A DNA stretch of 64,000 bases, from IMG/VR virus record IMGVR_UViG_3300035501_000922. One strand, written 5' to 3'. Both the position numbers and the translations under genes were made by a program. Shown piece by piece: positions 9,238-62,507 of this stretch. A model generated the notes under the pieces. The model saw nothing but the letters and a program-made list of their open reading frames with translations. It made no database searches and was not told where the DNA came from. Every line of letters starts with the position of its first letter. The stretch's first letter is position 1. Source of the DNA: a virus (Duplodnaviria; Caudoviricetes).

Positions 9238-12200
9238 TTATTCCTGTTCTGTTTCCTCATCATATGAAGGACCCATAAGATAGTTACGAGTTTTCATCTC
9301 GTGTTTTATTCTCTTTTCAAGTTCTTCTTTAGTAATTACAGGATTTTCTTCCAGAATTTCTTCTCTTATTTCTTTCTCTCTTTGAATGATAAAGAACTGA
9401 TAATCCGTACAAAAGTAATTCCTACCGTCAAGTTCATGTGACTTTAATTCGGTATTATTTAATGGATAAATAGCATCATCTTCATCAACAAAGTCTAATC
9501 CGATAGATAACGATTTAAGAATAACATCAAATATTTCTGCTACTCTTGAAGTATAAGAACTATCAATTTTCTGTATCGCATTACTATCAGAATCTTGGAA
9601 AAGTAAGTTTGCTAAATCACGTCTTCCTTTAATAGAAGTTCTATACATAGCATGAAATAATGCTATATCTTCCGGAATTAACGCTATAGAAAAGTTAAGT
9701 GTTTCGAACTCGCCACATTCGATTTATTACTTTATATCACTATAAAGATTAGACTATATCTTCATCCATATATTCTATTACCAAATATATGGAGCTCTCC
9801 GTTTCCACATTTCATGTGTACTCTACTCACTTCTTCATTATAATATTTCTATTATAACTATGCTTTCGATAGTCGTTGAACGTTCTTCTTATAAAGAAGC
9901 TTCGCTGCTGATTGTCTCATTGAGAGTTCCCAGCAATTAAAAGAGTTTTGCTAAATACTATTACTAGTATTTCCGCCCTGGCATTGTTAAAGCGGATGGC
10001 TGTACCGCTGTACTGCTCAAGATGTGACCTTGATTTATAACTTCTAGTGGGTAGTCCCTTGGTGTCAATAGCACCAGTACTTCTAGCACTAAATCCACGA
10101 CGGTCGGACTGTTTTAATTTCAATTATTATTCATATAGATTCGTTACATCTATATCTGTTTATACAGCTCTATGTCACCATAGAGTTTAGACTATATCAC
10201 ATCCATATATTCTGTTACTAAATATACAGACCCTTGCACTTCCACTCTACTTAGAGTGTACTCTACTCAGTTACTCACTTAGATATTTCTTCTAAGCTAC
10301 CTTTTCGATAGTCGTTGAGCTTAAACTAAATATTATATTTATTTTATATGTCTATTAATATAACTACGTATTTTTTCTTCATTGATATTATATTTTTTCG
10401 ATAATAAACGTTTGATATACTTACTCTTCATACCATGTTGGTATAAATTCTGTGCTTCTTTCTTTAAGTCTTCAGGCAATTCTCGATATGGAATAATTCC
10501 TCCAGTATAGTTACTTATATCTATTTCACTATAAAGACTGTTATAAATAGGATTACTTTTCTTTGCTAAAATATTTGATAGTGACGAATATTTTACACCA
10601 GTGATATCACTTATCTCATATAACGAATACTTATTTTGATTCATCAATTGAAATACCTGACGATATTGTTCTATCGTGTAACTTTCACGGTCATGATAAT
10701 AAGCATCTATATTATAATTTTGACTAATGTCCGTCCATGATTTATGTTTCACTATTAAATAAATCATAGCAAACGATACACCAGTGATATTTGATATTTC
10801 CCGCAATGTTAATAATCCTTCTTCTAAGTATACACAAACATCTTTAATTTGTTCACTGTCGTATATTGCTAAATGAGAATGATGACCACATTTAGCATGT
10901 TTTAATCCTGTTTTAAATGCATGAAGTATATTTTCAGATTTTGTTACCCATTCTAAATTTTCAATAGAATTGTCATGCTTATTGCCATTTTTATGGTTTA
11001 CTTCAGGTTTATTTTCAGGATTTGGTAAAAACGCTGAAGCAACGAGTCGATGTACCGCAAATTGGTATTGCTCATTATTATAAAATAAAACAACTCGTTG
11101 ATAATCATCGTCATAACCTCTAGGCTTTAAAAATTTATTAGTTTTTTCACTAAAAATTTCACCAGTTGAATATACAATATACTCAGTTTTTTCATCATTA
11201 ATATAGATATACTTTTTCATGTTTTTCACCGCCTTTTTAATTATTATCAATAAAGAAATTATTTAGTTTAAGTTGCGTGATTGTCTCTATTCTTAACCTT
11301 ATTACTATACCTTGGACGTTACTCCTCGCCATCATATTATTACTAATATGATTTAGTAGTTAAGACTTAACGAGAGTTCCCCGCAATTCACAAGGTTTTC
11401 TATGATTATTACTAACCATAGCCTCAAATTATTTTTTAAGGATATACATGTCTCCTACCCAAACTTTAGAAAGTATCTTTATCTTTCGTCCCCATTTGTT
11501 TATATAAACATTATCCGGTTGCAACCATGAATACTTTTCGAGAATATCTCTAATTCTATAAAATATTGGTTTAGTTTCCCACATTGGAGATTGATGAATA
11601 TAGATACCATTGTCAATCACATCATCAATAAAATCTTTCTTTTCGGACTCATTCATATCTAAATACATTTTTTGTATTTGTTTATGCTCGTCCTCATTAA
11701 ACTCATAAAGAATATCAAAGAAAAGTTTTTCTCTTTCCTTGTAATCTTCGTATTCTTGCATTTTCTTTCGCACCTGATGACAAATAGATGTCATCGTAAT
11801 TTCATAAAGCGGCATACTCGTTGTGCGATTAATAATAGCAAGAAGATTTAATAATAAATCAACCCTTCTACCATCTTCAGTAAAAGGCATATCTTCATCT
11901 TCTCTGATTTCTGAAATAACCGATTTGTTACCAAAACGCAATTACATTCATATAGACTCGTTACATCTATATCTGTTTATACAGCTCTATGTCACCATAG
12001 AGTTTAGACTATATCTTCATCCACATATTCTATTACCAAATATATGGAGCTCTGCACTTCCACTCTACTTAGAGTGTACTCTACTCACTTCTTCACTTAA
12101 GTATTTCTCTTAAGTTATGCTTTCGATAGTCGTTGAACGTTCTTCTATTAAGAAGCTTCGCTGCTGATTGTCTTCATGAGACCTTCCAGCAATTCACAGA

Positions 12201-13706
12201 GTTTGAAATATACATTACTGCATATTCAGGCAGTTTTTGTTTACCTGTTAATTTCTGTCCCTTAGCCAAAGGAACCACTTTACGTACAGTTATTTCAATA
12301 ACCATATTCGAAAAGGCACTGTCCAATTTTTTGTTAATCTCTACCTTTCAGTAGAAGTTCAGACTATATCTTCATCTTATACTCTATTACCAAGTATAAA
12401 GAGCTCTCCGTTTCCACTATATAAATAATGTACTCTACTCACTTCTTCACCTAGATATTTCTCCTAAGTTATGCTTTCGATAGTCGTTGAACGTTCTTCC
12501 ATTAGGAAGCTTCGCTGCTGATTGTCTCTATTCATTAGATTGTCACACTTTGGTACTAATGACCTAACAAGAGTTCCCAGCAATTAGAAGAGTTTATAGA
12601 GGGTTCGAATACCTTTAGCCCTCTTTCCATTTCTTTTCTTTGTCAAGCATTTCCAGTGCACGCTTATAAAGATAATCAACCTCTCTGGTATATTTATATC
12701 CAGAATCCATGATTTCTATACATGCATCAAGAATCTCTTTGTAATACTTATTTTGACCTCTGAGGTACTTATTAATCTGCTCTGTAAAAGCAGTATCAAC
12801 AATTTCTTCATTGTTATTATAAATAGTATAGTCAATAACTTCATTACCATTACCAATATAATAAACAATGTCGCCCTCATGAATCTGATTTAGTGATTCA
12901 CCTTTGAAATCAAATAAAAGCTGATTGTTAAATTGACGTCTGATAGCTGCAAGATGACCACTTACTGTTTCACCTATTTCAGGTAATGGTTTATACTTAC
13001 CTTTCTTATTAGGAATAAGAGAATAGGTATTATCAGGTTCACCCTGAAGATTAATGAAATAATCATTATCATTTAAACCAATAGTAATTACTTCAGTCTC
13101 AATAGATGTAAACTTGCCTGCTAAGCTTCTAGATACTACGGCAGCATCTTCTGAAGTATAAGGGTCAAGAGTATACATTACCGTTACATTACGACCATAT
13201 GCATAATTCATGTCTTCATCATAAGATGTTGACTTATACAATACAGTATTTTTGGGTATGTCATCTCCCTCTTCAAAACTATCAATAACGTCATTATTAT
13301 AGTCAAAACCAAAGTTTTCAGTAAGGTCTTCAACTTTCTTTCTGGTAATAACATCAAACTCTTCTTTTTCTGTATCAAATACAAAAAGTTTATAGATATT
13401 CGGTTCATCCAGAATCTCATCGAATTTTTCTACCTTTCTGAAAACTACAAGATTGTTTTTGGTCTGCTTATATCCTGAACTATGTTTACCAACAACGTTT
13501 TCTGCATTTGTAAAAACGTATGGAAATTCAGGATGCTGTAGATTCAAAAATTGCTTGAGGTGACTTGTAAACATAGTCGACCTCATACTGTTAATGTAGC
13601 CAGGATATGACAAAACAGTCATACCAAGCAGTGAAGACGAATTTTGATACTGTTCGTCTGCCTTGTACAGTTCTTCTTTCAAACTGTATTTCTGTACCTC
13701 TGGCAT
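9238..13706 (-). CDS. RNA polymerase beta subunit, C-terminal part; 5 exons and 4 group I introns (about 759 aa)
   Basis: Exons 13706-12618, 12323-12243, 11938-11438, 10120-9990, 9715-9238. Splicing restores the beta motifs EDA, GQKLTG|RFGNKSVI, DMPFTEDG, GDMYIL|KLKQ, SARSTG and RF|GEFE. Confidence 0.9.
9716..9989 (-). mobile_element. group I intron (beta-C intron 4, ORF-less)
   Basis: Core elements AAUUGCUGGGAA, AAUCAGCAGC, GUUCAACGACUA and AAGAUAUAGUC; P1 with U.G; terminal G at 9716; TT|T restores Phe of RFGE. Confidence 0.9.
10121..11437 (-). mobile_element. group I intron (beta-C intron 3) carrying an HNH ORF
   Basis: P, Q, R and S elements; P1 CCUU/GAGG; terminal G at 10121; ORF lies between Q and R (P6 region). 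Confidence 0.9.
10339..11220 (-). CDS. intron-encoded HNH homing endonuclease
   Basis: VHRLVASAFLPNPENKPEVNHKNGNKHDNSIENLEW followed by repeated HTH-like modules. Confidence 0.9.
   Translation of the reverse strand: MKKYIYINDEKTEYIVYSTGEIFSEKTNKFLKPRGYDDDYQRVVLFYNNEQYQFAVHRLVASAFLPNPENKPEVNHKNGNKHDNSIENLEWVTKSENILHAFKTGLKHAKCGHHSHLAIYDSEQIKDVCVYLEEGLLTLREISNITGVSFAMIYLIVKHKSWTDISQNYNIDAYYHDRESYTIEQYRQVFQLMNQNKYSLYEISDITGVKYSSLSNILAKKSNPIYNSLYSEIDISNYTGGIIPYRELPEDLKKEAQNLYQHGMKSKYIKRLLSKKYNINEEKIRSYINRHIK
11939..12242 (-). mobile_element. group I intron (beta-C intron 2, ORF-less)
   Basis: P1 CAGGU/GCCUG; full core; terminal G at 11939; splits GQKLTG|RFGNK. Confidence 0.9.
12324..12617 (-). 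mobile_element. group I intron (beta-C intron 1, ORF-less; junction ambiguous by 1 nt)
   Basis: Full core; P1 AGAGGG/CCCUCU; P10 AAAGGUAUU/AGUGCCUUU; no canonical U.G at the 5' splice site. Confidence 0.85.
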
Positions 13707-14788: not shown

Positions 14789-14799
14789 AATTTACCCAC

Positions 14800-15452: not shown

Positions 15453-15454
15453 AT

Positions 15455-18392: not shown

Positions 18393-19930
18393 TCAATAAT
18401 CCATTTCTTCCTCAGGAATCTCCATTTCCTCAGGACTAATAGCTGATAATCTCGATTCAAGTGAAGGAATAATATTACTATAGAGAATTTTATACAATTC
18501 ACGGTCATTCTTAAAATCTTGGTGCATATTCTTTAATGTAAACTTATGGTCCTTATTATCTGTGAGATAATATCCATTTCTATTACCACCAAGAACACCA
18601 ATCTCTTTTGCATAGTTAACTGATGACCTTAAAGAATCAATACCACGAACTTTATCGTATATTAATGGAACAACCTGACCGGCTTGGTTAGTTCTTGATT
18701 TGATTATCTCAAGTCTAACACCAAAACCATCAACTCCATCATCTTCCATATTATACTTTTCTCCACCAACAGCAACAAATTTAATCAATATATGTGCTAG
18801 GAATTGGGGCGTTTTTCCCAAAAATATTCATATAGATTCGTTACATCTATATCTGTTTATGCAGCTCTATGTCACCATAGAAGTTTAGACTATATCTTCA
18901 TCTTTATATTCTATCACCAAATATAAAGAGCTCTCCATTTCCACTCTACTTAGAGTGTACTCTACTCAGTTACTCACTTAGATATTTCTTCTAAGCTACC
19001 TTTTCGATAGTCGTTGAACCTTACTCTTATAAAGAGTCTTGGCTGCTGATTGCCTCCCTGAGACCTCCCAGCAATTAAGAGAGTTTGTCCAGTAGCTCAT
19101 GCTACATTGGGGCAGAAAATTTTACCCGGTAACGCCTCATCTTGTTTTAAGTATAATATCTCTGAAGGTGATTTAACGATACCCATATTCGGGTTAGTCT
19201 TAATCTGATTGATAGCTATGAGTGTAATGTTAGCCGTTCTAATATATGGCATAATTTCATTAAAGAATCTACCAATTTCTCCGGTTAATCTCATTCTATC
19301 AGTCTGGGTGCCTATCTCTTCAAGCTTAGCAAGATCCTTTTTATCATTTTCATTTAAACTCATTGTAATAGTAGCAATTGAGTCAAGAATAATAACAGAC
19401 GGGACATACAGTTCAATTTCTTCACCGAACTCATTCATCTTTCCCGTGTTATATTTATAAAGGTCTGGATTACTTGTTTTTTCTTTATAAAGTTCCATTA
19501 TGGTTTTTTTCATATCTTCAAGAGTTGATTTCTCTTGTCTTAAGATATACTTACCATTACTCATATCAGTCATACTAAATTTAGTAAGAGCCTGAATACG
19601 AGAATAGTTCATGGCTTGTTCAAGGTCAAAATGAATAACAACACCATTATCAAAATCACGTACAATATTAGAAGCAATCTGTACTGCTGTTGTAGTTTTT
19701 GATGTAGAGGGTTTACCAATAAATTCAACGTATGACCCTGCTGTAATTCCTATAGATGAATATGTATCCTTGAGATTATTATTTTCGTCAAATACATTTA
19801 CTTTGTATCCCAGATAATAGTCTAACACTGGGAATCCAGTTTTATAGGAAATAACCGAAGCATTACAATCAAAGTAATTATTTTTACCACTATTACTTCT
19901 TAACGCTTCTACTAAAAAATTTTTGCCCAT
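18393..19930 (-). CDS. RecA/UvsX-like recombinase; 2 exons (about 410 aa)
   Basis: Exons 19930-19124 and 18818-18393; Walker A GKPSTSKTT, Walker B IILDS, INQIK; splicing restores LPG|GKTPQFLA. Confidence 0.9.
18819..19123 (-). mobile_element. group I intron in the recA-like gene (ORF-less)
   Basis: P1 GGGU/GCCC; full core; terminal G at 18819. Confidence 0.9.
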
Positions 19931-29554: not shown

Positions 29555-32500
29555 TTAAATGCTGTTTAAGAAGAACAACAGCTCATCGCTGATCTTATCT
29601 TCGGAATAAAGTATTTCTTGACCCAGTAATTCAGGATTCTCATAAGTCACATACGTAAATCTCGTATTTATAAGTGTACTTAATAACGACAGAATGTAGT
29701 CCGGTTTAATCTGCTGTAACAAATTGTATTTATTAGTAATAAGATTTTGATAAAGATATGACTCTTCAATCTTAGAAATAAACTTGTTGTTACGAATTAT
29801 TCTTGTATTTACTCTATCTTCCAAGTTTCCTGTTAAAATATACGGCAATGCTGCTTGATGAACCTCACCGTTTTCATCTTTCTCATATCCCAGTTCGATA
29901 AGTAATTTCTTCTTAAGAAGTAATGCCAGTATAATATAATCTCTTCTAGTAAGTAAGTTTAAATCTCTATAAGACCCAAAATACTTTGTATAGTATGAGT
30001 ATATCAACTGAATTTGTATTTTTGATGGTGTAAGATGCTCTCTGTAATAATCAACCTCTTCTTCAGACAACGGTACATCAATGATCTTTCGGATCCTTTC
30101 AATTGTCTTTTGAATATTGATATCTGCAAACGTGGTAGCACCTTCATCTAACTTAGTTAGATTCATTGCCATTTTATCAATACCTGATAATCCATCACTA
30201 TTTTTTGTATTTGTAACTTCTGTTATATTTTTCTGGTACTGTTCTTTCAGGAAGTAATTAAGTTGAAATTTTATACATTTACTACCTCATGTTTCCATGC
30301 AGGATTAGACTATATCTTCATCTCTATATTCTATTACCAAATATAAAGAGCCACCCATTTCGGAATTAAAATCCTACTCTACTCAGTTACTCACTTAGAT
30401 ATTTCTTCTAAGCTACCTTTTCGATAGTCGTTGAACGTTCTTCAATAAAGAAGCTTCGCTGCTGATTGTCTCTATTCATTAGATTATTACACTTTGGTAC
30501 TAATGACCTAACAAGAAGTTCCCAGCAATTAGAGTGGTTTGTCCAGTGGTTTGCACCACTTTGCGACTATTAAATTTAATCGTTTTGTTAACCTTATATA
30601 TCTTGTCTTTCGACAAAGAAGTAGACTATATCTTCATCATATATTCTTTTACCAAATATATAATGCCTCCCATTTCGGATTTACTTAAATCCTACTCTAC
30701 TCGGTTACTCACTTAAGTATTTCTCTTAAGATACCCTTTCGATAGTCGTTGAACGTTCTTATATATTAAATTTAAATTATTTTAGTAGATTTTATTAGGT
30801 GGGGATTAAAAATTTTTATCATATTATTACTTCCTTTCATGTTTTTTAAATTCATAGTTACATGCAATAGTTTTCCACGATTTACCCGCATAGATTAATC
30901 CTATAGATTCGCTTGAAACACCTGTCTTTTCAGATATCTCAGCATATGTCTTATTGCCGGCTTGAAGCATCTCACAAACTAAATGAATTTGTTCCTTGGT
31001 ATACTTTATTTTGCATTTTCGTGCACTGACACTATATCTATCAATATCGTAATTTTTACTGATGTTATTCCATATTATATGATTACGAATTTGTTTTACT
31101 ACAGTGTATGAAACGTTAGTTAAATTTGAAATTTCTCTCATTGTTTTCAAATTTTCTTCAAGATATTTACATACCTTTTGAATTTGTTCATTCGTATACT
31201 CAGAATTTGGATGGTCTTCTCCGTCTTTTGCAGAACTTAGTCCAGTTTTCCACGCATGATGAATATTTTCTTTAGCTGTATTCCATTCTAAATTTGAAAC
31301 GCAGTTGTTATCAATATTCCCATCCTTATGGTTAACTTGTTCTTTATTTTCAGGATTTGGAATAAATGCCGATGCAACTAATCTATGGACTGCACAATAA
31401 TGGGGTTTACCATCTATATAGATAATAACATGATGGTACCCATCTTTGTCTAACCAATGCATAAGAATCTTTTTTGTTTGCTTCCTTATGCTTATTACTT
31501 CGCCATTTATTGTAACCATATATTTTGTTTTTATCCCGTTTAAATAAATCCACCTAATAAAATTATCATCTGTATAATCAATACCTAAAGTATCGATTAA
31601 AAATTGATTAAGTTGTTTTTTCTTACTCATAATTTATAAATATATAAGCTTCGCTGCGGATTGTCTCTATTCTTAACATTGTTACTATACCTTTGGAATT
31701 ACCCATTGCCATTATTATATTACTATAATAATTTAGTAGTTAAGACCTAACGAGAAGTTCCCCGCAATTAAAGAGGTTTTAATTGAGCTATAACTAACCC
31801 AATGATGTTCTCCTTGTACTTATGAAGTTTCGGATCCCAATGCTCGTTGAATTTATATTTAACTATATTTTCACTAATAAGAACAGTTTTTGTGAAGTGA
31901 TTAATTACAGTGTATACATCTGTACCAAAAATCTCCCTTTGTTCAAAGATAGGGGCATTATTACTATTTGATTCTAAAACCTTGGCTTTGCATAATTTTC
32001 ATATAAGTTTGTTATCACTTATACAGTTTTGTTATAAACTTCTTCATGTTTCCATGAATGATAAGACTATATCTTCATCTTTATTTCTGTTACCAAAATA
32101 TAGATGCCTACCATTTCCACTCTACTTAGAGTGTACTCTACTCACTTCCAGTTACCGTATTTCTCAAATAACCGTGTTTTCGATAGTCGTTGAACGTTCT
32201 TCCATTAGGAAGCTTCGCTGCTGATTGTCTCTATTCATTAGATTATTACACTTTGGTACTAATGACCTAACGAGAGTTCCCAGCAATTAGATAGGTTGCA
32301 ATAATACATCGCTGTATTACGACGCCATTAATTAACGTAGCAGTAAAGTTTGTTGTACATATTAATTTCTTGTAATGCATAATACGTACCAGATTCAGTA
32401 TAATAGTATGTCAGCCTTCTATCTGAACTTTTTACAGGAGTTAATTCTTTATTTTTAACGCCTTCATCAATAAATGATTGGGGCACATTATTATCAAGGA

Positions 32501-33170
32501 TATTACCGTTTTCATCTTTGAGTTCGTACGTTGTTCCATAACCAAAAATCTTAAAAAGATCCTGATAGAATCTGAAGATAATATCTGTATCTTTACCAGC
32601 TTTAATAACATTTAAAGCTAGATAATGAAATAATACAGGAGACATAATTTTCATACCGAAAGATATTCTTAAAAGAATCTTAATATGCTGATTGGTGAAT
32701 TCAAGACTCTCCAAGTGTTTCTTTTCGTTTTTCATATATTTTTTCTTCTCTTCGCTGTCTCCCTCTATGTCATCAAGATAATTATCTTCGACCATACGAA
32801 CTATCTTATCAACCATAGTTGGTGTAAAAATGACCTCATAGATAAAATCTATGAAAGCATTCATGTTTTCTTCGGTAAATCTTTTCTCCTTGTCAAGAGA
32901 AAATTTCAACTTCAAATAAGCTGTTGCAAGCTCATTATCAGTATCATAAAGATTCATAAAGAAGTTAGTGTACTTGGTAATAATACCTAACTGATTCTCA
33001 TATGAACCCTTGTTTATAATAAACTTATTATAAACTCTCAGATTTGAATAACCAAATATCTTATCGAAATGACAAACAAAGAGCTTGCCATCAGGTTCGA
33101 CAAATACCTGATTTTTCTTTGGTTTCCAAGTGTTAATCTTGGATGTTTTACGTTGTTTTTCTTCCGCCAT
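29555..33170 (-). CDS. conserved core protein, probable sigma-like promoter-specificity subunit of the nvRNAP (AR9 gp226-like); 4 exons (about 587 aa)
   Basis: Exons 33170-32335, 31990-31797, 30591-30579 and 30275-29555 join in frame (YCYV|KAKV...NIIG|FNKTI|IKFQL). The function is inferred only from synteny two genes from GroEL. Confidence 0.6.
30276..30578 (-). mobile_element. group I intron (sigma-like gene intron 3, ORF-less)
   Basis: P1 CGAU/GUCG; full core; terminal G at 30276. Confidence 0.85.
30592..31796 (-). mobile_element. group I intron (sigma-like gene intron 2) carrying an HNH ORF
   Basis: P1 AUUGGGU/GCUCAAU; Q at about 31650-31665, R and S at about 30620-30755; terminal G at 30592. 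Confidence 0.85.
30827..31630 (-). CDS. intron-encoded HNH homing endonuclease
   Basis: VHRLVASAFIPNPENKEQVNHKDGNIDNNCVSNLEW followed by two HTH-like modules. Confidence 0.9.
   Translation of the reverse strand: MSKKKQLNQFLIDTLGIDYTDDNFIRWIYLNGIKTKYMVTINGEVISIRKQTKKILMHWLDKDGYHHVIIYIDGKPHYCAVHRLVASAFIPNPENKEQVNHKDGNIDNNCVSNLEWNTAKENIHHAWKTGLSSAKDGEDHPNSEYTNEQIQKVCKYLEENLKTMREISNLTNVSYTVVKQIRNHIIWNNISKNYDIDRYSVSARKCKIKYTKEQIHLVCEMLQAGNKTYAEISEKTGVSSESIGLIYAGKSWKTIACNYEFKKHERK
31991..32334 (-). mobile_element. group I intron (sigma-like gene intron 1, ORF-less)
   Basis: P1 ACGU/GCGU; full core; terminal G at 31991; GT|C restores Val. Confidence 0.85.
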
Positions 33171-36118: not shown

Positions 36119-36172
36119 AAATAAATCTCCCTTCAAAAAATGTTAGAAAACTGTTGTGAGCAATATGCTATT

Positions 36173-44078: not shown

Positions 44079-47000
44079 AGAATTTAATAATATTTGTTAT
44101 TGTGTCAGTTTTTCTATTGACACCATTTTTACTTTTACCTTCTTCAGTGAATCTTGAACCGAATATTTCAAGTACAGGTTTAAACGGTGCAATGATATTA
44201 TTAATCATTGTTGAATAGTCAATATACGGTTGTGTCCACTCAGGAATTGTAGCATTACTCGGTATTGCTAATACCTGTAATCCTCTTTTTTTATAAGTCC
44301 ATTGACCTTGTATTTGGTCTTTATACTTTTCACGGTCTTCACCAAGAGCAACATCCACAAAACTATTCCATGCTTCAGGCCCAAGTTTTTTATACTTAGA
44401 TTTATATTTTTTTGGTAAATCCTCATACCAATCTTTCTTTTTTGGATTTACATAATCTATACCGTTATCTTTAGTCTTAGTGACAAAGATTCCAGTAGTA
44501 TCATTAAAAATCTTCTCAATGATCGTATCATAAATATCAGGATGAGTTCTTTCTAAATCAGCCATATCTTCCTCAGTAAAAATATTCATCTTTACTAAAC
44601 TTACCTTTGACGGGAAATCAATAGCATTATCAGGATATAGAATATTCCATGCTAGAGCACCACGAACACTTTGCTCAGAAGCTGGGTCTTTATATGCACC
44701 AAGTTCTTTAGCACTTCCATTAGGTAAAAACGTTCTTTCACCTCTTTGTATTGATTTTCTGATTTCTTCTTTGAACTCTCTGATTCCTTTTATCATTTCT
44801 TTCAACTCAACAGTTTCTGAGTTAAGTATATGATTCTTAATTAACTTCATGAATACTTCTTCAGCATATTCTGAAGTTGTAGCTTTTTTAAAGTCAAATC
44901 CTTTAATATCAGCTTTTGGTGGAGAAAGTAAATTACCCTCTCTCAGTTTCTGTTTTGAAATATATCTTTTCTTTGCTTTACCTATAACCAATAGAGTATT
45001 AAAGAACTCATTTTTCATATTAAAACGAGGTCTATACTCTTCAGGAATATTTGAATACTTTCCATAATGAATAAGCATATCATAAATAGCATTAGTTATT
45101 GTATACGTAATAGTATTTACAACAACGAATCCATTATGCTCAAAGTCTCTTCCATATGTGTTATCTCCTACAACATCATCAAATATATAATTGATTAATG
45201 TATCAAGAGATAAGAAGTTTGAGTCAGTGTCTATAACTGTGACAACACGACGCTTAAAATTTTTTAATCTATATATTCTATCAACCGATAGATACTTTAC
45301 ATAACAATACTTCATCAAATAATCAGAGAGGACTCCTAATGTTCCTTCAATTTTTTTAGGTGGGTCATTAGGGTCCATGAAGTACTGCTTATTTACAAAC
45401 TTATTCCAGTCTTTTGCTGTTTTATTTGAAAAATCATACCTATATTCATTAGGAATTTTTTGTAACCACTTATCATCTTTAGTATCAGCATACTCAAGAT
45501 TCTCAACGTTTTCAAATATAGTTTCAAATAAAGATTTAATAAAATCGTGGTCATGAATAAATTCAATCATATTATTTTTATAATATAACCGAGTAATTTC
45601 TTCTTCACTTAATGAGAGCAAATAATTGTATAGTATTTCTTCATCATTATCTTGAGGTTGTAGTATTTTATTAATTAATCTATCAACCAAATCATTTATA
45701 GATTTCACTTGAACAAAATCGTCTATTATAATATCTTCTTTTAAAACGACATTAATCCATTCGATAAGTTCTGTTAAATCTAAGTATATATAGTTATCAG
45801 CAAGAAACGATTCAAACATTGTTTCTGCTGTAGAAATTACTGATTGAGCAGTAAGTGTTGTGGCAGGACCACTCCATTTAGAATAAAATGCTGAAGATGG
45901 TGCACCACTCGATCCATAATATGAATTCATATTTATCTTTTCGTTAGCTTGCAAAATTAAAAATTATACTTTTTAGAAATTTCTACCCATGATGCTTTAT
46001 ATTTTATATTATATATTTTTGATGCTGGTATGTCCAGTTGTTTGGATATAACTGATACTTTAATGCCTTTCTCTAGCATAGTACATATATCTTCTGCTAA
46101 TTTAGAATCTATATGCCTTATTATATGAAAGTCATATTCACATGATATATCTGTCCAGTTTAATCCACTTCGAATATTACGAACCGTTGGTTTAGGTACA
46201 CTGAGTAATTCAGAAACTTCACTAATATTATATCCAAGCTCTAAATATTCACATATGTTTCGAGCCATCTCAATATCAATATTTTTTTTTGTTGAAAATG
46301 TATAATTACATGAAATAGATTTCCAACACGTTCGATTTTTTATATTCTGGACTGTTGTTACAGGTATATCAAGTTTACTGGCTATATCTTTAACTCGTTC
46401 ACCATCCTCAAGCATTTGACATATTCTCTCAACGGTTTCATTGGTATTTTTAGCTACAGGGCATTCCTCACCAACTCTTCGTAAACCTGTTTTTATAGCA
46501 TGAGAATTATTATGATAAGCAGTACACCATTCCAAATTTGTAACACTGGGATTTAATTTGTTGCCATCAATATGATTAACCATAGGAAAGTTGTGTTTGT
46601 TATCAAGAAACGTACTTGCAACTATTCGATGAAGACTAAAAGTTCTGGTTTTTTTAATACCATTTCGTTCACCATATAAACCAACTGAATAATACCCCGT
46701 ACTATTAATCCAACAAGGAACATTTTTCTTTAATTTATGGTCATAAATAATTCCATTTTCGAAGACTTCATAACGTTTTTTCTGTATACATGGGTAGTTT
46801 ACATATTTACTTTTCATTTCATATTTTTCCTTTCATTTTTTAATGAAAAGTTAAAGTATAATTTTTTAATTTAGACTATATCTTCGATGCATATTCTGTC
46901 ACCAAATATACATCGCCTTCCGTTTCGGATTTAGAAAAATCCTACTCTACTCACTTCTTCACTTAAGTATTTCTCTTAAGCTATGCTTTCGATAGTCGTT

Positions 47001-47593
47001 GAACTCACATCCATAAAGGATGCTTCGTTGCGTCGATTACTACATTAATAACCTTTTTACTATACCTTTGGAGTTACCCATTGCCACTATTATATTACTA
47101 TAATAATTTAGTAGTTATTAATTACGTAGTGTTCCCGCAATTAGAAAGGTTACGTAGCCAAGCTTTAACTAAGTTAACTACGGTCTAGGTCTTGGTATTC
47201 GTAACTATCAAAACCTAATGTTTCTCCTACACTAAACATTTGTTTTTTATATGCTTTACGACTAGCAGCCCATTTATCAAGCATTAACGAAATTGGGTTT
47301 AATGCTTCATCTTGAGTTTTATAAAATGTGCCATTACCTGCAATAAGAGGCTTTCTTTCAAGAGCCCAGTCAAAAACACTTATTAGTGTAGTTTCTCTAT
47401 TTTCACCAGTGTAGTTATTATCTAATTCTACACGTGGATTCATTGTTTGTTCTTTTATCATTTTAAGAACTATTTTTTCCACTTTATCTTTGTCCCAATC
47501 GGGATTTAACCGACACATTATGTTTACCATCCGTTTTTTATACTTATTGATAAACTTACTATCGGCATTAATATGAGTATTCATAAAACTCAT
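44077..47593 (-). CDS. family B DNA polymerase, polymerase-domain subunit (split phiKZ-type); 2 exons (about 763 aa)
   Basis: Exons 47593-47177 and 45951-44077; splicing restores motif B DRS|QANEKINMNSYYG; motif C IDTDS; KKRY; no exonuclease domain. Confidence 0.9.
45952..47176 (-). mobile_element. group I intron in DNA polymerase, with the HNH ORF in P9
   Basis: P1 CGUAGU/GCUACG and P10 AGCUUG/CAAGCU pair fully; core ends at about 46872; the ORF follows; terminal G at 45952. Confidence 0.9.
45957..46817 (-). CDS. intron-encoded HNH homing endonuclease
   Basis: LHRIVASTFLDN...VNHIDGNKLNPSVTNLEW followed by three HTH-like repeats. Confidence 0.9.
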   Translation of the reverse strand: MKSKYVNYPCIQKKRYEVFENGIIYDHKLKKNVPCWINSTGYYSVGLYGERNGIKKTRTFSLHRIVASTFLDNKHNFPMVNHIDGNKLNPSVTNLEWCTAYHNNSHAIKTGLRRVGEECPVAKNTNETVERICQMLEDGERVKDIASKLDIPVTTVQNIKNRTCWKSISCNYTFSTKKNIDIEMARNICEYLELGYNISEVSELLSVPKPTVRNIRSGLNWTDISCEYDFHIIRHIDSKLAEDICTMLEKGIKVSVISKQLDIPASKIYNIKYKASWVEISKKYNF

Positions 47594-53553: not shown

Positions 53554-53555
53554 AA

Positions 53556-54497: not shown

Positions 54498-57400
54498 ATG
54501 GCTATTGATTTATCAGTCGATGTTCCTGTTATTAATAATAGGAGCGAATTAAAACAATGGTTGAAACCAATGTATATCATATCAGATTATATGTCTGATT
54601 ATGATACCTACAAGAAGTTTCAACAAAAGATGTATAATCTTATTAAAGGGTGCTTTGTTATTAAAGAATGCAGAGAATACCCCGTAAGATTTAAGTTCAA
54701 CAAAAGAGATTCTGAAACATACGAACTTCAGTTAAGACATTTTGTAGTTAATCTTATTGTATGGTATCCTTTCATTGAACTTAACGACATTGATGTTCTC
54801 AATAAGTCTTTTATTCTCGATTGTTTCAATGACATTCCTGCTATTGAAACTTATATCAACGAGAAGCTTATCAGTACTTTGAGAGAATACCATGTTAAAT
54901 CAACTAAAGTTAACTACGCAATTTCAGAAGTCCTGTATAATTTAAGAAAAATCTCAGAGGATTTTTCCATTATATTGGGACTTAATTTTTCAGCACCCAC
55001 TTTCATTGATATGTACAATAATAATCCTGAAATTAAAGAACTCATGGAATGCACGTTTGAAGAGAACATGCAACCACATGAGATTGAACAAAAGTTACAG
55101 GAGTATGAAGATAAAGAAATAGGTATATTTAAGAATACTAAGGATAATCCTATTGGTACCATCCTTCGAGCTCAGACTGGTATTAAGCTTAAACAGCTTA
55201 GAGAATTTACCATCTCAGAAGGATTAAAACCTACTCTTACAGGAGAAACAATTCCTATACCTATTCAAAATAGTACAATGTTACGTGGTCTTGATAGACC
55301 CTCATACTTGTTCATAGACGCTATGGGTGCTCGTAAGTAAAAAATTATTAATGGCTTACGTTAAACTCCCTTAACTGCTGGAAACTCCTTGGTGAGAGGA
55401 CAATCAGCAGCCAAGACATTTAAAGTATTACATTATGTAAGATTCCAATATGACTAACATTATTTTAAAAATTTTATGAAAAAGGTGATAATAATGATTT
55501 ATATTGGATTCGAAGAAGAATGGAAAAAAATTATAATTGATAATCAAGAAACGATTTATAGTATATCAAATTTTGCTAGAGTCCGTAATGATGAAACTGG
55601 TTTGATTAAAAAACATACAGTTGCCGAAAATAAACGTCATTTCGTGACATTGAATATAGACGGTGAATCTGTAAAAAAACTGGTATACAGATTAGTAGCA
55701 GAAGCATTCATACCTATACCTGAAAAATATCTTAAATTAGGTTATAATGCAAAATCCTTAGAAGTTGACCATATCAGAGATGGCGACCCTGAAAATCACG
55801 ATGATAATTCTGTATTTAATCTTCAATGGTTGACTAAGCGTGAGAATATAATCAAAGCTAGTCAAGCAGGTTTATATAAATCTGAAAATAAAAAATACAA
55901 GGATAAAAATCGAGAGAAAAAAGAAAGTGGATGGGGTCGACCCGGTGAAAAAAATCCTTCATCGGTTTATACTGAAAAACAGATTCGAGAAATATGTGAA
56001 CTACTTGTCGAAAATAAACTTAATGCACAAGAAATCGCTGATAAAGTTGGCGTTAAAAAAGGACTTGTACATGATGTTAGAATCGGTAGAGCATGGAAGC
56101 ATGTATCAAAAGAATATGACTTCAGTCATTATGACAGAAAGATTGGTTTACAGTATGAGCCAGAGTTGCTAAAAAATTTAGATATACTGATTAATATGGA
56201 TGCTACTAATAAACAGATACGTGAAATACTAAAACTTGATAATGACAAAACCGTCAGAGCACTGATTTCCAGTCATAGAAAAAAACTTGGTAAGAACATA
56301 ACTGTTCGAACGGTATATGATCCACAGATTCTTCAAAAAATAGATGAGTATATAATTGCAGGGAAAACTAATAATGAAATTAAATCTCAACTTAATCTAG
56401 TACATGAAGGTAGAACAGATGTTTTACTTTCTGCACATAGAAGAAGACTAAGTGTTCCTGCACCATCTAGAAATTAATACTTTTAAATGTAAGGTTCAAC
56501 GACTATCGAAAACATAACCTAGAAGAAACATCTAGGTGAAGAAGTGAGTAGAGTACACTCTAAGTAGAGTGGAAATGGGGAGCAGTGTATATTTGGTAAT
56601 AGAATATATATTGAAGATATAGTCTACTCTGCATGGTAACATGCAGCCGTTTACGGATATAAGTGTAACGGACTTATATGAATACAATACTAACGCATTA
56701 GTAATGAATAAGAAGGTCATGGGAAGAGCTGGTTACTTCGGTGTGTAATATTCGCCGGGAATATATAGTAATATATATTCATGTACTCTCTTAATTGCTG
56801 GGAACTCTTGCTAGGTCATTAGTACTACGTGTAATAATCTAATGAATAGAGACAATCAGCAGCCAAGACTCTTTATAAGAGTAAGGTTCAACGACTATCG
56901 AAAAGGTATCTATAATAGAAATATCATAGAGAGTAACTGAGTAGAGTAGGATTTAAGTAAATCCGAAATGGAGAGCTTCCTATATTTGGTAATAGAATAT
57001 AGGAATGAAGATATAGTCTAGTATCCTATGGAGACATAGGGAAGTTCATAAGAGAACTGTATAGAATTAACACTTCTATATGAATAAAACGAAAATAGTT
57101 CTTTTACTAGCAAGAACACTTAGCTTATCAACAGAGACATCTGATTGTAATACTAAGCATCTTGTTACGTATGACATAACCAGTAAAAAAGTACTCAATA
57201 AACTAAACGGAAAATATTATAAAGAGAGCGAAGATGATGATATTAAGCTTCTTAATGCTAAAACAGATATTCACCTTATAGGTAAGAGTATTCTTGTTCG
57301 CTCTCCTGCAACATGTGCTTGTGGAGATAGTGTATGTGCTAGATGCATTGGTACTACTGCTGTAATTAATCAGGATATTGGTGATGGATTCTCAGCGTTT

Positions 57401-58297
57401 GAATCTGAAGAAATTACCAAGATAATTAATCAGTCTATTCTATCGACAAAGCATCTTTTAACAACTAATTCGGAGGTTATTGAATTTAACCCAGAATTTC
57501 ATAAGTTCTTTACCATTCTTGGTGGAGAGATTAATCCAATCGTTAATGAAAACAAATACGTTGACGATATATCGGATTATGCAATTTATATAGACCCAGA
57601 TGATATATCTAAGGTTGAAGAGATGGATGATGATTCACTGTATAATACTATGATTTACAATGGTAGATTTTACGTAAGAAACATCAATGACCCTGAAGAA
57701 CCTGATATATTAATACAGGCTGTAGGAGAAAAGGAGATATATATAACAGAAGAAGCAACTACACTTCTTAAGAAGGGTAAAGGTTTAATTAAATTCCAAG
57801 ATTTGGATGATGACATTAAGTTATTTGAGATGACAATTCTTAATAATGAACTTACTAAACCTTTGTATGATTTGATGGACCTGCTCAATAAAAATAAGAA
57901 AGACGATATTGATATGACAATAGACTCTATGTGTCAGAAGTTCATGGAACTGATGATTGATTCTAAGATTTCCGCTAATATCGTAGCAGCAGAAATAATC
58001 ATTAATAGATTAATAAGGTCTGTAGAGAATCCTTATGATAGACCCGATTTTACACAAGATGAGATGCCCTTGTATACAATCTTCACAGTCAGAAAAGCCC
58101 TTGAAAAGAATCGTTCACCATTAATTGGATTATCATTCCAAGATATCAAACGACAGTTTTTAAGTGATGACCTTTATGATGAGCGAGATGGAACATCTTA
58201 TATTGACGCATTCTTCCGTACTGAAATACCTACTGACAATCTTAAGACTTATGCTGAGATGGTTAGTAAAGATAATTTAAATAAGAGAGGTAAATAA
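54498..58297 (+). CDS. RNA polymerase beta' subunit, C-terminal part; 3 exons (about 697 aa)
   Basis: Exons 54498-55338, 56696-56742 and 57092-58297. Splicing restores the bridge helix RGL...GARK|SLVMNKKVMGRAGYFG|KI. Also DCNT, the Zn site RSPATC..VCARC and a trigger-loop-like NQSILSTKH. Confidence 0.9.
55339..56695 (+). mobile_element. group I intron (beta'-C intron 1) carrying an HNH ORF
   Basis: P1 CGUAAGU/GCUUACG; P10 UUAUUAAUG/CAUUAGUAA; terminal G at 56695. Confidence 0.9.
55476..56477 (+). CDS. intron-encoded HNH homing endonuclease
   Basis: VYRLVAEAFIP...VDHIRDGDPENHDDNSVFNLQW followed by HTH-like modules; the true start may be 55494. Confidence 0.85.
   Translation: MKKVIIMIYIGFEEEWKKIIIDNQETIYSISNFARVRNDETGLIKKHTVAENKRHFVTLNIDGESVKKLVYRLVAEAFIPIPEKYLKLGYNAKSLEVDHIRDGDPENHDDNSVFNLQWLTKRENIIKASQAGLYKSENKKYKDKNREKKESGWGRPGEKNPSSVYTEKQIREICELLVENKLNAQEIADKVGVKKGLVHDVRIGRAWKHVSKEYDFSHYDRKIGLQYEPELLKNLDILINMDATNKQIREILKLDNDKTVRALISSHRKKLGKNITVRTVYDPQILQKIDEYIIAGKTNNEIKSQLNLVHEGRTDVLLSAHRRRLSVPAPSRN
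56743..57091 (+). mobile_element. group I intron (beta'-C intron 2, ORF-less)
   Basis: P1 UUCGGU/GCCGGG; full core; terminal G at 57091. Confidence 0.9.
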
Positions 58298-58407
58298 TAC
58301 GGAACGTTTTTATGTGTAGGAGATTATCGATCTCCTACACATTTTTTTATAGTTTTTATAGGGTTTTTATTTATATATTATTATATTGAAGAAAGGAGTT
58401 GGTTATA

Positions 58408-58800
58408 ATGCCAGTACAAGTAATAATCCATCGTCAACTTATTTACAAGGAGGTTAATAGAATCTTTGAGTCGAATTTACCTGCTGAACTCAAAGGTAAA
58501 TTATTACCTCCTAATTCTAAGTATGCAAAATTGTTCATGAGCATAGCAACGAGTATTTCGCTTAACAAAGGTGACTGTTTGTTAAAGGAGAATACATACT
58601 GCTGGACTATTAGTATGGACGATTTTAACAGTATACTTGAGGATTTGGAAGACGGCTTTGGTACAAAATTTACAGAAACGAGCGGTCAAAGAGTGTGCAA
58701 TGATATGGTTTTCCGTGATGGAGATTATATCATATTTGATAACCATGATAAATTTATATTCTCAGGTGGTTATTGGTTACATGAAAAAGATAGAGGTTAA
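58408..58800 (+). CDS. hypothetical protein
   Basis: AAGGAG RBS; TATATATTAT promoter at 58372. Confidence 0.7.
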   Translation: MPVQVIIHRQLIYKEVNRIFESNLPAELKGKLLPPNSKYAKLFMSIATSISLNKGDCLLKENTYCWTISMDDFNSILEDLEDGFGTKFTETSGQRVCNDMVFRDGDYIIFDNHDKFIFSGGYWLHEKDRG

Positions 58801-58920
58801 CCTCTATCTTTTTTTATTTTTTTATTTTTGAACTAGCCAATTAATTACTTGAATAAACCTATTTTTCATTTTAATAAAGACATTTTCTTAATCTATTTGA
58901 AGAAAGGACTGATTTATCCA

Positions 58921-61900
58921 ATGATGAAAATCATTAAACGAGATAGTACGGAAGTTGATTTCATTCGTACTAAAATCGAAATTGCTATTTCAAAAGCTAA
59001 TAAAGAGGTGAAGCCTGAACAACAGATTTCATATGAAACTATATGTAATATAGCTAACGATATTGAAAAGACGTGTGCTAAATCTCAGCATGCTCTTAAT
59101 GTTGAAGATATTCAGGATATGGTTGAAACAAAGTTAATGGAAGTTGGAGCTTTTGAAATCTCTAAGAAGTATATCAAATATAGATATGACCATGAGTTAA
59201 GAAGAAAAGCAAATACCACAGATGATAAAATCATGTCTCTTATCGAATGTAATAATGAAGAAATCAAACAAGAAAATTCAAATAAAAATCCAACCATAGT
59301 TTCTGTTCAGAGAGACTATGTTGCTGGTGAGGTAAGTAAAGATTTAACAAGAAGATTTCTACTTGATGAAGATATAATCGCTGCTCATGATGAAGGTATT
59401 ATTCATTTCCATGATATGGATTATTTTCTTGAGAAAATGTCGAATTGCTCTCTTGTTAATCTTTTTGACATGCTATGGAATGGTACTGTAATAAGCGGCA
59501 CAATGATAGATAGACCTCATACATTCTCAACTGCTTGTAATATAGCAACGCAAATCATTGCCCAAGTGGCATCTTCGCAGTTTGGGGGTCAGTCTATAAA
59601 TATGGCTGACTTAGTCAAATTCGTTGATATATCAAGACAGAAAATAAAAGCAGATGTTGAGGACGAACTCCAGATTTCTGGTGGAGACATTTCTCGTTTA
59701 GATGAAATTGTCGAAAAGAGACTTAAAAAAGAAATTGAAAAAGGTGTACAGACAATCCAGTATCAGGTAGTGACCCTGATGACCACTAACGGTTTAATTA
59801 ATAAATTTGGCTGTTATAAAACTGCGTGAACTGTTTTATTCAACAGGTGTGAGTTATAAAACTCGCTAACGGTAGAAGTGATATACATAAATAAGCTTCG
59901 TAAGAGAACCTACGGTCCAGCAATGGATAGCAGGTAATACCGTGCTAAGTTTATCTAAATAATAAATAGATAAAAAAGTGTAGAGACTAAGGCTGATGAA
60001 TGTAAGCCTGTAGGGTGGAGATGAATACCACTCAAAGTGCGTGGCAAATGTTTTTAACATTTGAAGAGATAGTCCATTTGTAATTGAAAAATTACTGGAG
60101 CAATGCAAGCTCCATTTGTAACATTATTTTTATACTTAGGTGCTGTACCTGAAGGACCTGAAAAAGAAGACCTTGCTATGGTTATCGAAGAAGTACTTAA
60201 ACAACGTTACATTGGTACAAAGAATGAAAAAGGTGAGTATGTTACACCAGCATTTCCAAAGCTTATATTTGTTTTGGATGAAGATAACGTATATGATGAT
60301 AGTAAATATCATTATTTATTCGAATTAGCTGCTAAATGTACAGCTAAGCGTATGGTTCCCGATTATATATCTGCTAAGATTATGAAGCAGTTAAAACAGG
60401 GTAACGTATATACGTGTATGGGATGTGTAGATGGAGATTCCATTATTAAATATAAATATAAAGATGAAACGTACTTTGAGTCTTTCTTTAAAGCATGGAA
60501 TAGACTCTCAAAAGATTTTGAAGTAAAACATCAGTATACAGAAGATAATCCTAATGTATATATGGATTTAACTGGTGTTGAAATATATGACACATTAAAA
60601 GGATTCGTTAATACAAAACGAATTATTCGTAATATAAGTAAAGAATGGTTAGAAGTTACATTCAGTAATGGTCAAAAGATAATTTGTACAAAAGACCATC
60701 CATTTGATGTTATTGATAAAGGAAGAACTTTAGCATCTGAATTAACTGTAGATAATTGCTGGGTATATAGTTCATTTCCTACTGATTCGTCATTAAATTG
60801 CCAAGAGGTATGCACAGTATTCGTAACTAATATCAAAGAAGTAGTTAAGTCTGCTTACAGTTATGATGTAACAACTGATTCTGATCATTTTGAAGTAAAT
60901 AGTATTTATAGTCACAACTGTCGTTCATTCTTGACGGTTGAAGACAAGATAAGAAACGAAGATGGGACTCATAAGTTCTACGGACGTTTGACCCTTAAGT
61001 TAAGACGTCCTTAAACCCTGTGAACGCATGAAAAAGCGGTGTGGAGATTTTCTCTGCTAACGGCGAAACCTCTATGAGGTAATACCGTGCCAATTATTGA
61101 ATTCAATAAAGGTGTAACGACTATCGAAAACATAACCTAATTACATAGGTGAAGAAGTGAGTAGAGTAGAATTGATTTTATCACAGTTCGAAGCGCAGGG
61201 CATGTATTAATGAATACATGATGAGATAGTCTATGCATATAGCGATATATGTTTAACATGTTAACCAAGGTGTTGTTACTATTAATTTAGTTGACGTTGC
61301 TTTATCATCTGGAAAAGATGAAAACAAATTCTGGAAAATATTTGAAGAGAGACTTGAATTATGTCATAGAGCATTAAGAGCAAGACATGAAAGACTTCTT
61401 GGAACTCCTTCAGATGTTGCTCCTATTTTCTGGCAGCATGGTGCAATTGCCAGATTGAAGAAAGGTGAAACTATTGATAAACTCTTATATGATGGATATT
61501 CCACATTATCTCTTGGATATGCTGGTTTATATGAGTGTGTATATTATATGACTGGTGTATCTCATACAGAAAAAGATGTTGGTATGCCGTTTGGTTTATC
61601 AGTAATGCAGAAATTAAATGATAAGTGTGCTGAATGGAGAGCTGCTGAAAATATTGCATATTCAGTTTATGGTACTCCCCTTGAAAGTACTACATATAAA
61701 TTTGCTAAATGTCTGCAGAAGAGATTTGGTATTATTGAAAATGTAACTGACCATAATTACATTACGAATTCATATCATTGCTCAGTTAGAGAAGAAATCA
61801 ATGCATTTGATAAGCTTACATTTGAGTCTGAATTCCAGAAGTTATCACCAGGTGGAGCTATTAGTTATGTAGAAGCTCCTAATCTTGAAGATAACTTAGA

Positions 61901-62507
61901 TGCAGTTATGGAGATTCTTAAGCATATATATGATACCATTATGTATGCTGAAATTAATATAAAGAGTGACTATTGTCACGTTTGTGGTTCTACTCAAGAA
62001 ATTAAAATAGTCGAAGATGAATCCGGTAAACTCATTTGGGAATGTCCTAATTGTGGAAACAGAGACCAGAATAAAATGAATGTCGCTAGACGTACATGTG
62101 GGTTAATTTAATATAGCTCACGTTAAATTGCTTAAATTGCGGGAAAGTCCCCATAATACTAATTGGCTACAACGTAATCTGAAAAGATAAGCGTGAATGC
62201 GGTATAAGTTTAAAACTTTAGAAACCTTAAAAACAAATTAGCGTAGGGATAACCGAGGGTGCAAGTCCCTCAGACGCAGCAAAACTCCTTAACAGGTTAT
62301 GCTGATGGAGGATGTTCAACGACTATAATAGCAATTAATTATTTATAAATAATTAAAATGTATAGTCTACTCCCCTAAGTAAATATCGGGAAACCGAGGG
62401 TATTAAAGGATATTGGAAGTAATTTCTGGAATCAGGGAAGAACTGAAGAAATTAAAGACAGGTACGTTCATTGCGATAATCATGACTTTGACCTTGAGTC
62501 TATTTGA
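58921..62507 (+). CDS. nrdD: anaerobic (class III) ribonucleotide reductase; 4 exons plus an intein
   Basis: ATP cone; exons 58921-59793, 60106-60988, 61261-62103 and 62410-62507 restore TNG|QAPF, GR|FNQGVVTINL and RRTCG|YIG; also YITNSYH and a CxxC..CxxC zinc site. Confidence 0.95.
59794..60105 (+). mobile_element. group I intron (nrdD intron 1, ORF-less)
   Basis: P1 UAACGGU/GCUGUUA; R GUAGAGACUA; S AAGAGAUAGUCC; terminal G at 60105. Confidence 0.85.
60424..60918 (+). mobile_element. mini-intein (165 aa) in NrdD
   Basis: Starts CVDGDS, block B CTKDHPF, ends YDVTT..DHF...IYSHN before +1 Cys; removal restores CMG|CRSFL; no endonuclease domain. Confidence 0.92.
60989..61260 (+). mobile_element. 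group I intron (nrdD intron 2, ORF-less)
   Basis: P1 GGACGUU/GACGUCC; R GUAACGACUA; S AUGAGAUAGUCU; terminal G at 61260. Confidence 0.88.
62104..62409 (+). mobile_element. group I intron (nrdD intron 3, ORF-less)
   Basis: P1 GUGGGU/GCUCAC; P AAUUGCGGGAAA; R GUUCAACGACUA; S AUGUAUAGUCU; terminal G at 62409. Confidence 0.88.

Follow-up and report, generated by a model that had tools for sequence, protein, structure and literature searches.

What are fourteen introns doing in the essential genes of one phage? The question is raised by a 64,000-nt stretch of viral DNA (IMG/VR record IMGVR_UViG_3300035501_000922; Duplodnaviria; Caudoviricetes), which in its whole length we call the window. A sequence-only reading of the window had placed the introns in six genes, most of them inside conserved motifs, had judged their density unusually high for a phage, and had proposed that their splicing could gate the switch from early to late transcription. 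We find 14 group I ribozyme cores, I1 to I14, within 53 kb: four in the gene for the beta-C subunit of a non-virion RNA polymerase (nvRNAP), one in a recA-like gene, three in a gene for a protein resembling gp226 of phage AR9 (the earlier "sigma-like" gene), one in the gene for a family B DNA polymerase (PolB), two in the gene for the nvRNAP beta'-C subunit and three in nrdD. These elements are very probably self-splicing introns of a selfish, mobile kind that have accumulated at conserved sites of the six essential genes.

We scanned the window with the Rfam covariance model RF00028 (Intron_gpI; gathering score 50) and with three core motifs, AAYTGCKGG, GTTCAACGACTA and RWGAKAKAGTC, which correspond to J3/4-P4, P6-J6/7-P7 and J8/7-P7. 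RF00028 matches all 14 elements and the motifs mark the same 14, with J6/7-P7 and J8/7-P7 present in 14/14, confirming both the number of introns and their 4/1/3/1/2/3 distribution over the six genes. Seven introns score above the gathering score (78-97 bits) and the other seven span 22-42 bits; five of the latter appear in the whole-window scan, while I9 in PolB and I12 in nrdD were missed there and are matched in local scans only. Neither RF00028 at E up to 1 nor the core motifs revealed a further convincing intron in the window. The introns sum to 8.2 kb, about 13% of the window.

To delimit the exons, we aligned reference proteins to the window by tblastn, then enumerated the junction pairs that keep the frame with U (or C) at the exon end and G at the intron end. 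The reference for nrdD was the intact 739-aa NrdD of a gut phage, MT835469.1 (L009); the others came from a 250-kb relative of the window, IMGVR_UViG_3300032038_000001 (G001), in which recA (412-aa frame) and the gp226-like (607 aa), PolB (772 aa) and beta'-C (716 aa) genes are uninterrupted and beta-C lacks three of the window's four introns. The enumeration gave one solution fitting the reference length at each site, except that I1 keeps two registers. All six spliced coding sequences run from ATG to stop with a length that is a multiple of three and 0 internal stops, and their products align without a gap at every junction with an intron-free reference. Removing each intron thus restores the frame, as had been claimed, and the spliced products are collinear with intronless homologs; the junctions named earlier (GQKLTG^RFGNK, YIL^KL, RF^GE, the bridge helix, PolB motif B and RTCG^Y, with ^ at the intron) match the reference alignments. 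The genes, exons and introns are as follows (bits are RF00028 scores; ORF, open reading frame).

9238-13706, minus strand: nvRNAP beta-C gene, five exons, 759 aa spliced (tblastn with the G001 homolog; PDB 7S00_C)
13706-12617 (or -12618), 12322(3)-12243, 11938-11438, 10120-9990, 9715-9238, minus strand: beta-C exons
12323-12616 (alternative 12324-12617), minus strand: I1, 294 nt, no ORF, 83.6 bits
11939-12242, minus strand: I2, 304 nt, no ORF, 85.6 bits, unique U/G junction at GQKLTG^RFGNK
10121-11437, minus strand: I3, 1317 nt, HNH ORF at 10339-11250, 29.3 bits (3' core) and core motifs, junction YIL^KL
9716-9989, minus strand: I4, 274 nt, no ORF, 95.7 bits, junction RF^GE
18393-19930, minus strand: recA-like gene, exons 19930-19124 and 18818-18393, 410 aa, 86% identical to the G001 protein and gap-free
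18819-19123, minus strand: I5, 305 nt, no ORF, 90.4 bits, junction ALPG^GKTPQF
29555-33170, minus strand: gp226-like gene, four exons, 587 aa, 64% identical to the intron-free G001 protein
33170-32335, 31990-31797, 30591-30579, 30275-29555, minus strand: gp226-like exons
31991-32334, minus strand: I6, 344 nt, no ORF, 97.2 bits, junction LYCYV^KAKVL
30592-31796, minus strand: I7, 1205 nt, HNH/NUMOD4 ORF at 30827-31630, partial match of 33.1 bits and core motifs
30579-30591, minus strand: 13-nt micro-exon between I7 and I8, read from the sequence as UUAACAAAACGAU
30276-30578, minus strand: I8, 303 nt, no ORF, 82.7 bits
44077-47593, minus strand: PolB gene, exons 47593-47177 and 45951-44077, 763 aa (Pfam divDNApol), 73% identical to the intron-free G001 protein
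45952-47176, minus strand: I9, 1225 nt, complete core at 47176-46857, 40.8 bits (local scan)
54498-58297, plus strand: nvRNAP beta'-C gene, three exons, 697 aa, 70% identical to the intron-free G001 protein
54498-55338, 56696-56742 (47 nt), 57092-58297, plus strand: beta'-C exons
55339-56695, plus strand: I10, 1357 nt, HNH/NUMOD4 ORF at 55476-56477, 41.7 bits (3' core), junction GARK^SLV
56743-57091, plus strand: I11, 349 nt, no ORF, 78 bits, junction GYFG^KIV
58921-62507, plus strand: nrdD gene, exons 58921-59793, 60106-60988, 61261-62103 and 62410-62507
59794-60105, plus strand: I12, 312 nt, no ORF, divergent, 35.4 bits, junction TTNG^QAPF
60424-60918, plus strand: mini-intein, 165 aa (TIGR01445 27.2 bits, cut-off 24.5; PDB 2JMZ, E=5e-4)
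60989-61260, plus strand: I13, 272 nt, no ORF, 37.5 bits, junction YGRF^NQG with the F codon split
62104-62409, plus strand: I14, 306 nt, no ORF, 22.2 bits and core motifs, junction RTCG^YIG

The predicted RNA pairings support these junctions. In 13 of the 14 introns, a P1 helix of 4-9 bp lies within the first 25 nt and places a U.G pair exactly where the 5' splice site is deduced to be; the last base is a G (omega G) in all 14, and eight can pair with the downstream exon in a P10 of 4-8 bp. P1 is CCUU/GAGG in I3, 7 bp long with a U.G in I7, I10 and I13, and 8 bp with a U.G in I14; I4, I5 and I12 likewise have a P1 with a U.G. P10 is 6 bp in I3 and I5, UGGCG/UGCCA in I4, 8 bp in I10 and I14 and 5 bp in I13. 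In I8, P1 is CGAU+UA/UAGUCG, and CGAU is the 3' end of the micro-exon, which together with its flanking split codons encodes G-F-N-K-T-I where G001 has G-L-N-K-T-V at equal length. Since the G001 beta-C gene has an intron at the same site as I4, that junction was placed by P1 and P10, by the downstream exon (68% identical to its G001 ortholog) and by the RpoB motif RFGE. We considered the Rfam 3' ends as splice sites for I2-I6, I10 and I11 and rejected them; they stop 14-50 nt before the true terminal G, on account of an additional hairpin that follows P9 in several introns. An RNAalifold consensus of seven ORF-less paralogs (few and related sequences) has 28 of 70 pairs compensated on both sides, and P3 and P4 likewise show two-sided pairing changes in the full alignment.

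The insertion sites tend to lie in conserved stretches. We compared the 12 residues around each junction with the whole-gene identity to the reference, excluding the intein, and assessed the difference by 20,000 random draws of positions within these genes. The sites have a mean excess identity of +0.12 over the gene (permutation P ~0.007), and 9 of 13 testable sites lie at least 5 points above the gene mean, with I7 and I8 at only +2 and I1 and I9 below the mean. The earlier statement that most introns sit inside conserved motifs therefore holds. Two junctions, GARK^S and GYFG^K, fall in the beta' bridge helix, part of which is encoded by the 47-nt exon; I9 interrupts PolB 6 aa ahead of motif B (KINMNSYYG), and I14 sits in the glycyl-radical loop of NrdD.

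Several points weigh against the view that all 14 are functional introns at conserved sites. The three nrdD introns (I12-I14) and the endonuclease-bearing introns are under the Rfam gathering threshold, and the conservation test uses one reference per gene and 13 junctions. I1 has no U.G at its 5' splice site and no P2: its P1 is AGAGGG/CCCUCU (6 bp), with the splice site just beyond, at a U-A or C.A pair. Because it lacks both features, I1 may be inefficient in splicing or use a site that is not canonical. Its two registers, KEG-Y-SAFS and KEG-D-SAFS, both stay in frame. These same features, the lack of U.G and P2 in I1 and the low Rfam scores of several introns, could mean that some elements, above all I1, are decayed relics that no longer splice, with the pieces translated separately or the gene defective in the assembled genome; the polymerases of giant phages are, after all, already split into N and C subunits. 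We consider this very unlikely. Neither a start codon nor a ribosome-binding site is present in the internal exons (13, 47, 80 and 131 nt), introns split the codons at junctions, and every exon is in frame and conserved; the helices maintain their pairing through compensatory changes, and I1 itself retains all core motifs and scores well above the gathering score.

The PolB gene poses a related question, since the HNH ORF of I9 (45957-46817) lies within a 3' extension of the intron and ends 5 nt short of the 3' splice site. We rejected a split of PolB by a free-standing endonuclease with separate translation of the parts, as a complete core, a 9-bp P1 with a U.G and a 6-bp P10 precede the ORF. 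At the 5' end of the intron (47150-47180, minus strand) are two near-identical copies of UAGUUAA(C/A), both able to pair with the guide; only the first leaves the frame open.

The nrdD product matches Pfam NRDD, ATP-cone and Gly_radical and aligns with the intact L009 NrdD, which is uninterrupted across MG^CRSFL. At this CRSFL cysteine, the window's NrdD carries the mini-intein (CVDGDS...TKDH...SHN^C), with an N-terminal Cys, a TxxH motif, a C-terminal HN followed by Cys+1 and a Hint match, the features of a class 1 mini-intein; it resembles the KlbA mini-intein 2JMZ and has no endonuclease domain. As predicted from its gene, the production of NrdD takes three splicing events at the RNA level and one at the protein level. 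A further gut-phage nrdD, in MT835556.1 (L008:2332-5337), is a single 1002-aa frame, probably with one or more inteins, that ends after RRTCGL, equivalent to the window's I14 site. We rejected an intron at the RTCG^Y site of MT835556.1, where RF00028 has no match in the following ~860 nt. Another gut-phage scaffold, MT835498.1 (L010:1043-1118), has a c-di-GMP-I riboswitch at 57.5 bits, above its gathering score, upstream of a 651-aa ORF.

Nine of the introns lie in three genes that identify the phage. Beta-C matches a chain of the AR9 non-virion polymerase (PDB 7S00_C, E=6e-81), beta'-C matches phrog_3015, and the gp226-like protein matches phrog_25005 and, over its N-terminal ~150 residues only, AR9 gp226 (7S01_A, E=4e-10). 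Judged on these three proteins, the enzyme is an nvRNAP of the AR9/PhiKZ type, and the window's genes point to an uncultured, AR9-like giant phage as the source, one whose beta and beta' subunits are each in two parts and which has a gp226-type specificity subunit. In AR9, gp226 is the promoter-recognition subunit, and its similarity to sigma region 2 is limited (PMC5449584); the label "sigma-like" is fair to that extent. The window has ~32% G+C and contains no tRNA gene. INPHARED has no near-identical phage, the only matches being ~100-nt intron cores of Staphylococcus and Pseudomonas phages. By tblastn, the closest cultured relatives are AR9/PBS1, Listeria phage LPJP1 and Staphylococcus jumbo phages, at ~33% identity. 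Much closer are six uncultured contigs of 249-279 kb in IMG/VR (G001-G006); the six studied proteins of G001 are 64-86% identical to those of the window. Just past the beta-C stop is a weak L20-leader match (9131-9243, plus strand; 31.7 bits, under the cut-off), which looks like a hairpin with a run of U after it and is for this reason probably no leader but a bidirectional terminator.

Since these nine introns lie in three nvRNAP subunit genes, the count of nine splicing events needed for the transcription genes stands. This arrangement is what the proposed gating of the early-to-late switch builds on: all three interrupted transcription genes encode AR9-type nvRNAP subunits, and the AR9 enzyme requires gp226 for promoter recognition (PMC5449584), so that late transcription would depend on nine splicing events, whose efficiency could time assembly of the late polymerase. 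The relatives speak against such a role. The beta'-C and gp226-like genes are intron-free in G001, as is beta-C in G002 and G003; because the genes of close relatives are intron-free, the introns appear dispensable for the transcription programme. The replication genes PolB, recA and nrdD are equally interrupted, site occupancy is patchy in the manner of mobile elements, and we found no regulatory RNA element or splicing cofactor. Group I splicing is also normally fast and co-transcriptional. We therefore regard splicing as a timer of the switch as very unlikely, and this part of the sequence-only reading is not upheld.

Intron load varies widely among relatives. At E up to 0.001, RF00028 has one match in G002, two in G001 (three by motif) and in G004, six in G003, 11 in G005 and 19 in G006, with 18 in AR9, 21 each in Internexus and Staphylococcus phage LY01, 5 in MarsHill, 4 in Madawaska and 3 in LPJP1. 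G006, AR9, Internexus and LY01 show local clusters as tight as the window's; G006 has ~15 matches within 55 kb, and AR9 has four introns in 1.35 kb and eight in 25 kb. [quoted passage not shown] The density is real, but it is that already known for AR9-like giant phages, and the claim that it is unusually high for a phage is not supported. On the best reading, the window's introns are ordinary ones and no designed regulatory device, in a phage that is among the more intron-rich of a lineage noted for such introns.

Occupancy of individual sites is patchy. The I4 site is occupied in G001, by an intron 87-91% identical to I4, and in G004, and is empty in the other relatives; the I2 site is occupied in G005 and G006 and empty in the others; and the recA (I5) site has ~1.2-kb insertions in G003 and G006 and is empty in the others. 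The G001 ortholog of I4 (L001:9788-10969) carries an HNH gene (ORF 9957-10757) in its P6 region, whereas I4 in the window is a 274-nt ORF-less version, so an endonuclease was either lost in the window or gained in G001. Such patchiness is a signature of homing cycles with endonuclease loss. We also compared each intron with same-site introns and with its paralogs in the window. For I4 only, the same-site intron is the closer one (G001, 91%). At the I2 and I5 sites, the idea that same-site introns are closer was rejected, with paralogs at 77-81% and same-site introns at 72-74%. As the relatives are distant, this comparison is not decisive.

Within the window, the introns form a family. With their ORFs removed, I1-I11 are 57-81% identical to each other, and the nrdD introns I12-I14 are more distant (40-60%). 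Pairs of introns share exact blocks (I3/I5 79 nt, I1/I6 67 nt, I6/I8 63 nt, I5/I8 62 nt, I2/I3 58 nt and I5/I11 56 nt), and this mosaic suggests recent exchange or gene conversion between intron copies. Only I3, I7, I9 and I10 contain endonuclease genes; the four HNH ORFs are paralogous (25-45% identical) and confined to introns. The I3 and I7 ORFs match Pfam HNH_3 (E=3e-12 and 2e-7); those of I9 and I10 have weaker HNH_3 matches plus NUMOD4 or HTH matches, and the I9 ORF matches phrog_59 at 5e-49. An HNH motif combined with DNA-binding modules in an intron-encoded protein is the hallmark of HNH homing endonucleases of phage group I introns (I-HmuI/gp210 type). In three of the introns the ORF lies between the P4-P6 domain and P7, and in I9 it follows the complete core. 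The remaining ten of 14 introns are ORF-less and full-size, at 272-349 nt. We read the set as a mobile family because of this mutual identity, the mosaic blocks, the confinement of the HNH ORFs to introns and the patchy occupancy.

A stronger version of this history is that one ribozyme lineage radiated within one genome to at least 11 unrelated sites, changing only its guide, and that its copies still convert one another's modules, as the mosaic of exact shared blocks would suggest; we hold this as a speculative and rather unlikely extension. If true, the phage would be a natural system for the colonisation of new sites by group I introns, and ordered splicing could be studied at the 13-nt exon, which serves P10 of one ribozyme and P1 of the next. 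The introns gathered in this way may also isolate the phage genetically from relatives that have few of them.

From these features we infer splicing itself, the activity of the endonucleases and mobility. In each intron ribozyme the guide would bind the last bases of the upstream exon (P1, with the U.G at the cut) and often also the first bases of the downstream one (P10). Splicing would begin with attack on the 5' site by an external guanosine; the exon end released by this would then attack after the terminal G, so that the exons are joined precisely. Splicing would make full-length beta-C, beta'-C, gp226-like protein, PolB, RecA and NrdD translatable, and NrdD would additionally undergo protein splicing of its mini-intein. 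By analogy with I-HmuI and PhiPA3 gp210, the HNH endonucleases may nick intron-free alleles of co-infecting relatives, whose repair would copy the intron in. Descent with loss of the endonuclease is the most likely origin of the ten ORF-less introns, which would still shield their sites from cutting. Introns would accumulate at conserved sites because an endonuclease finds an invariant target there and losing an intron imprecisely would be lethal.

The same elements could also be viewed as weapons and shields, with endonucleases that cut the intron-free polymerase, PolB and recA alleles of co-infecting relatives and ORF-less copies that protect the phage's own. The introns would then act in interference competition and marker exclusion, and the load would be partly adaptive, isolating co-circulating phages genetically. 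There is precedent in gp210 of PhiPA3, an HNH endonuclease from a polymerase-gene intron, which cuts PhiKZ progeny 3.7-fold in co-infection (PMC11620839). Relatives of the window carry endonuclease versions at its ORF-less sites (G001 for I4; G003 and G006 for recA), and load ranges from 1 to 19 among the ~250-kb relatives. Purely selfish homing with endonuclease loss, however, predicts an identical pattern, and 10 of the 14 introns have no endonuclease. We regard a role in competition as possible but doubtful, and favour the reading of the introns as selfish mobile elements.

The window's introns are similar to those of phage type in Twort, SPO1 and T4. The Bacillus jumbo phage AR9/PBS1 and relatives such as Internexus have, like the window, many group I introns, some with HNH genes, in polymerase-subunit and replication genes (Lavysh et al. 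2016, as cited in bioRxiv 10.1101/2020.12.14.422802). The AR9 proteins are only ~33% identical to the window's and the sets of occupied sites differ: AR9 nvRNAP beta-C is intact whereas that of the window has four introns, and the window additionally has three introns and an intein in nrdD and the 13-nt exon. Similarly to the window's interrupted beta-C, nvRNAP beta-C is annotated as 4 joined pieces in MarsHill and as 3 in Madawaska. The MarsHill/Madawaska system has introns in polymerase, DNA polymerase, terminase and gyrase genes and an intein in gyrase A, and intron positions vary between close relatives there, as they do around the window. Its junctions were predicted by protein alignment only, and RF00028 detects few of its introns (4-5 matches), whereas the window's are full-size, at 272-349 nt, and of the Twort/SPO1 type.

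An arrangement comparable to the window's is found in PhiPA3, where the HNH nicking endonuclease gp210 is encoded by a group I intron that occupies a conserved position in a multisubunit polymerase gene of a giant phage (Birkholz et al., Science 2024; PMC11620839); gp210 is a guide to the possible action of the window's four endonucleases. There it is one intron, in the virion RNA polymerase gene of a Pseudomonas phage that forms a nucleus, and experiments have demonstrated that the endonuclease is active and affects competition. Two lineages of gut phages, the crAss-like Zeta group (PMC7886860) and the Jug phages (PMC12880540), likewise bear a heavy load of group I introns and of inteins in genes that are essential. 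Of 104 Jug genomes, 95 have a fragmented nrdD, and for three further genomes with paired metatranscriptomes, reads back splicing for 37 of 76 predicted introns (PMC12880540). Both are unrelated lineages with Bacteroidota hosts and without multisubunit AR9-type polymerases, and Jug introns average ~206 nt. The best nucleotide match of the core is the recombinase intron of the Twort-like Staphylococcus phages Romulus and 812 (~84% over 98 nt). Its ribozyme type is that of the window's introns, and its host gene is recA-like, as is that of I5; the Romulus endonuclease, of 328 aa, is annotated only as "intron-encoded endonuclease". We rejected a shared insertion site for it and I5, as tblastn was negative and the Romulus intron lies in the Walker A loop, whereas I5 lies at PG^G.

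Outside the interrupted genes, the window encodes a 685-aa GroEL-like chaperonin (34079-36136, minus strand), for which GroEL models match the first ~350 residues only and far under the family cut-offs.

As the sequence-only reading had foreseen, ordinary gene calling fragments the interrupted genes, which is seen in the ORF calls. Gene callers can be expected to yield ~25 fragments and miss six essential genes, and the exon map presented here corrects the annotation. The 13-nt exon, the U.G-less I1 and the mosaic identity of the paralogs are small questions that can be tested by RNA biochemistry. The ~250-kb genomes of the same clade, with 1 to 19 detectable introns and intron-free alleles, offer a contrast for the study of homing, endonuclease loss and competition, and the window is a well-resolved example of the intron load reached in AR9-like giant phages.

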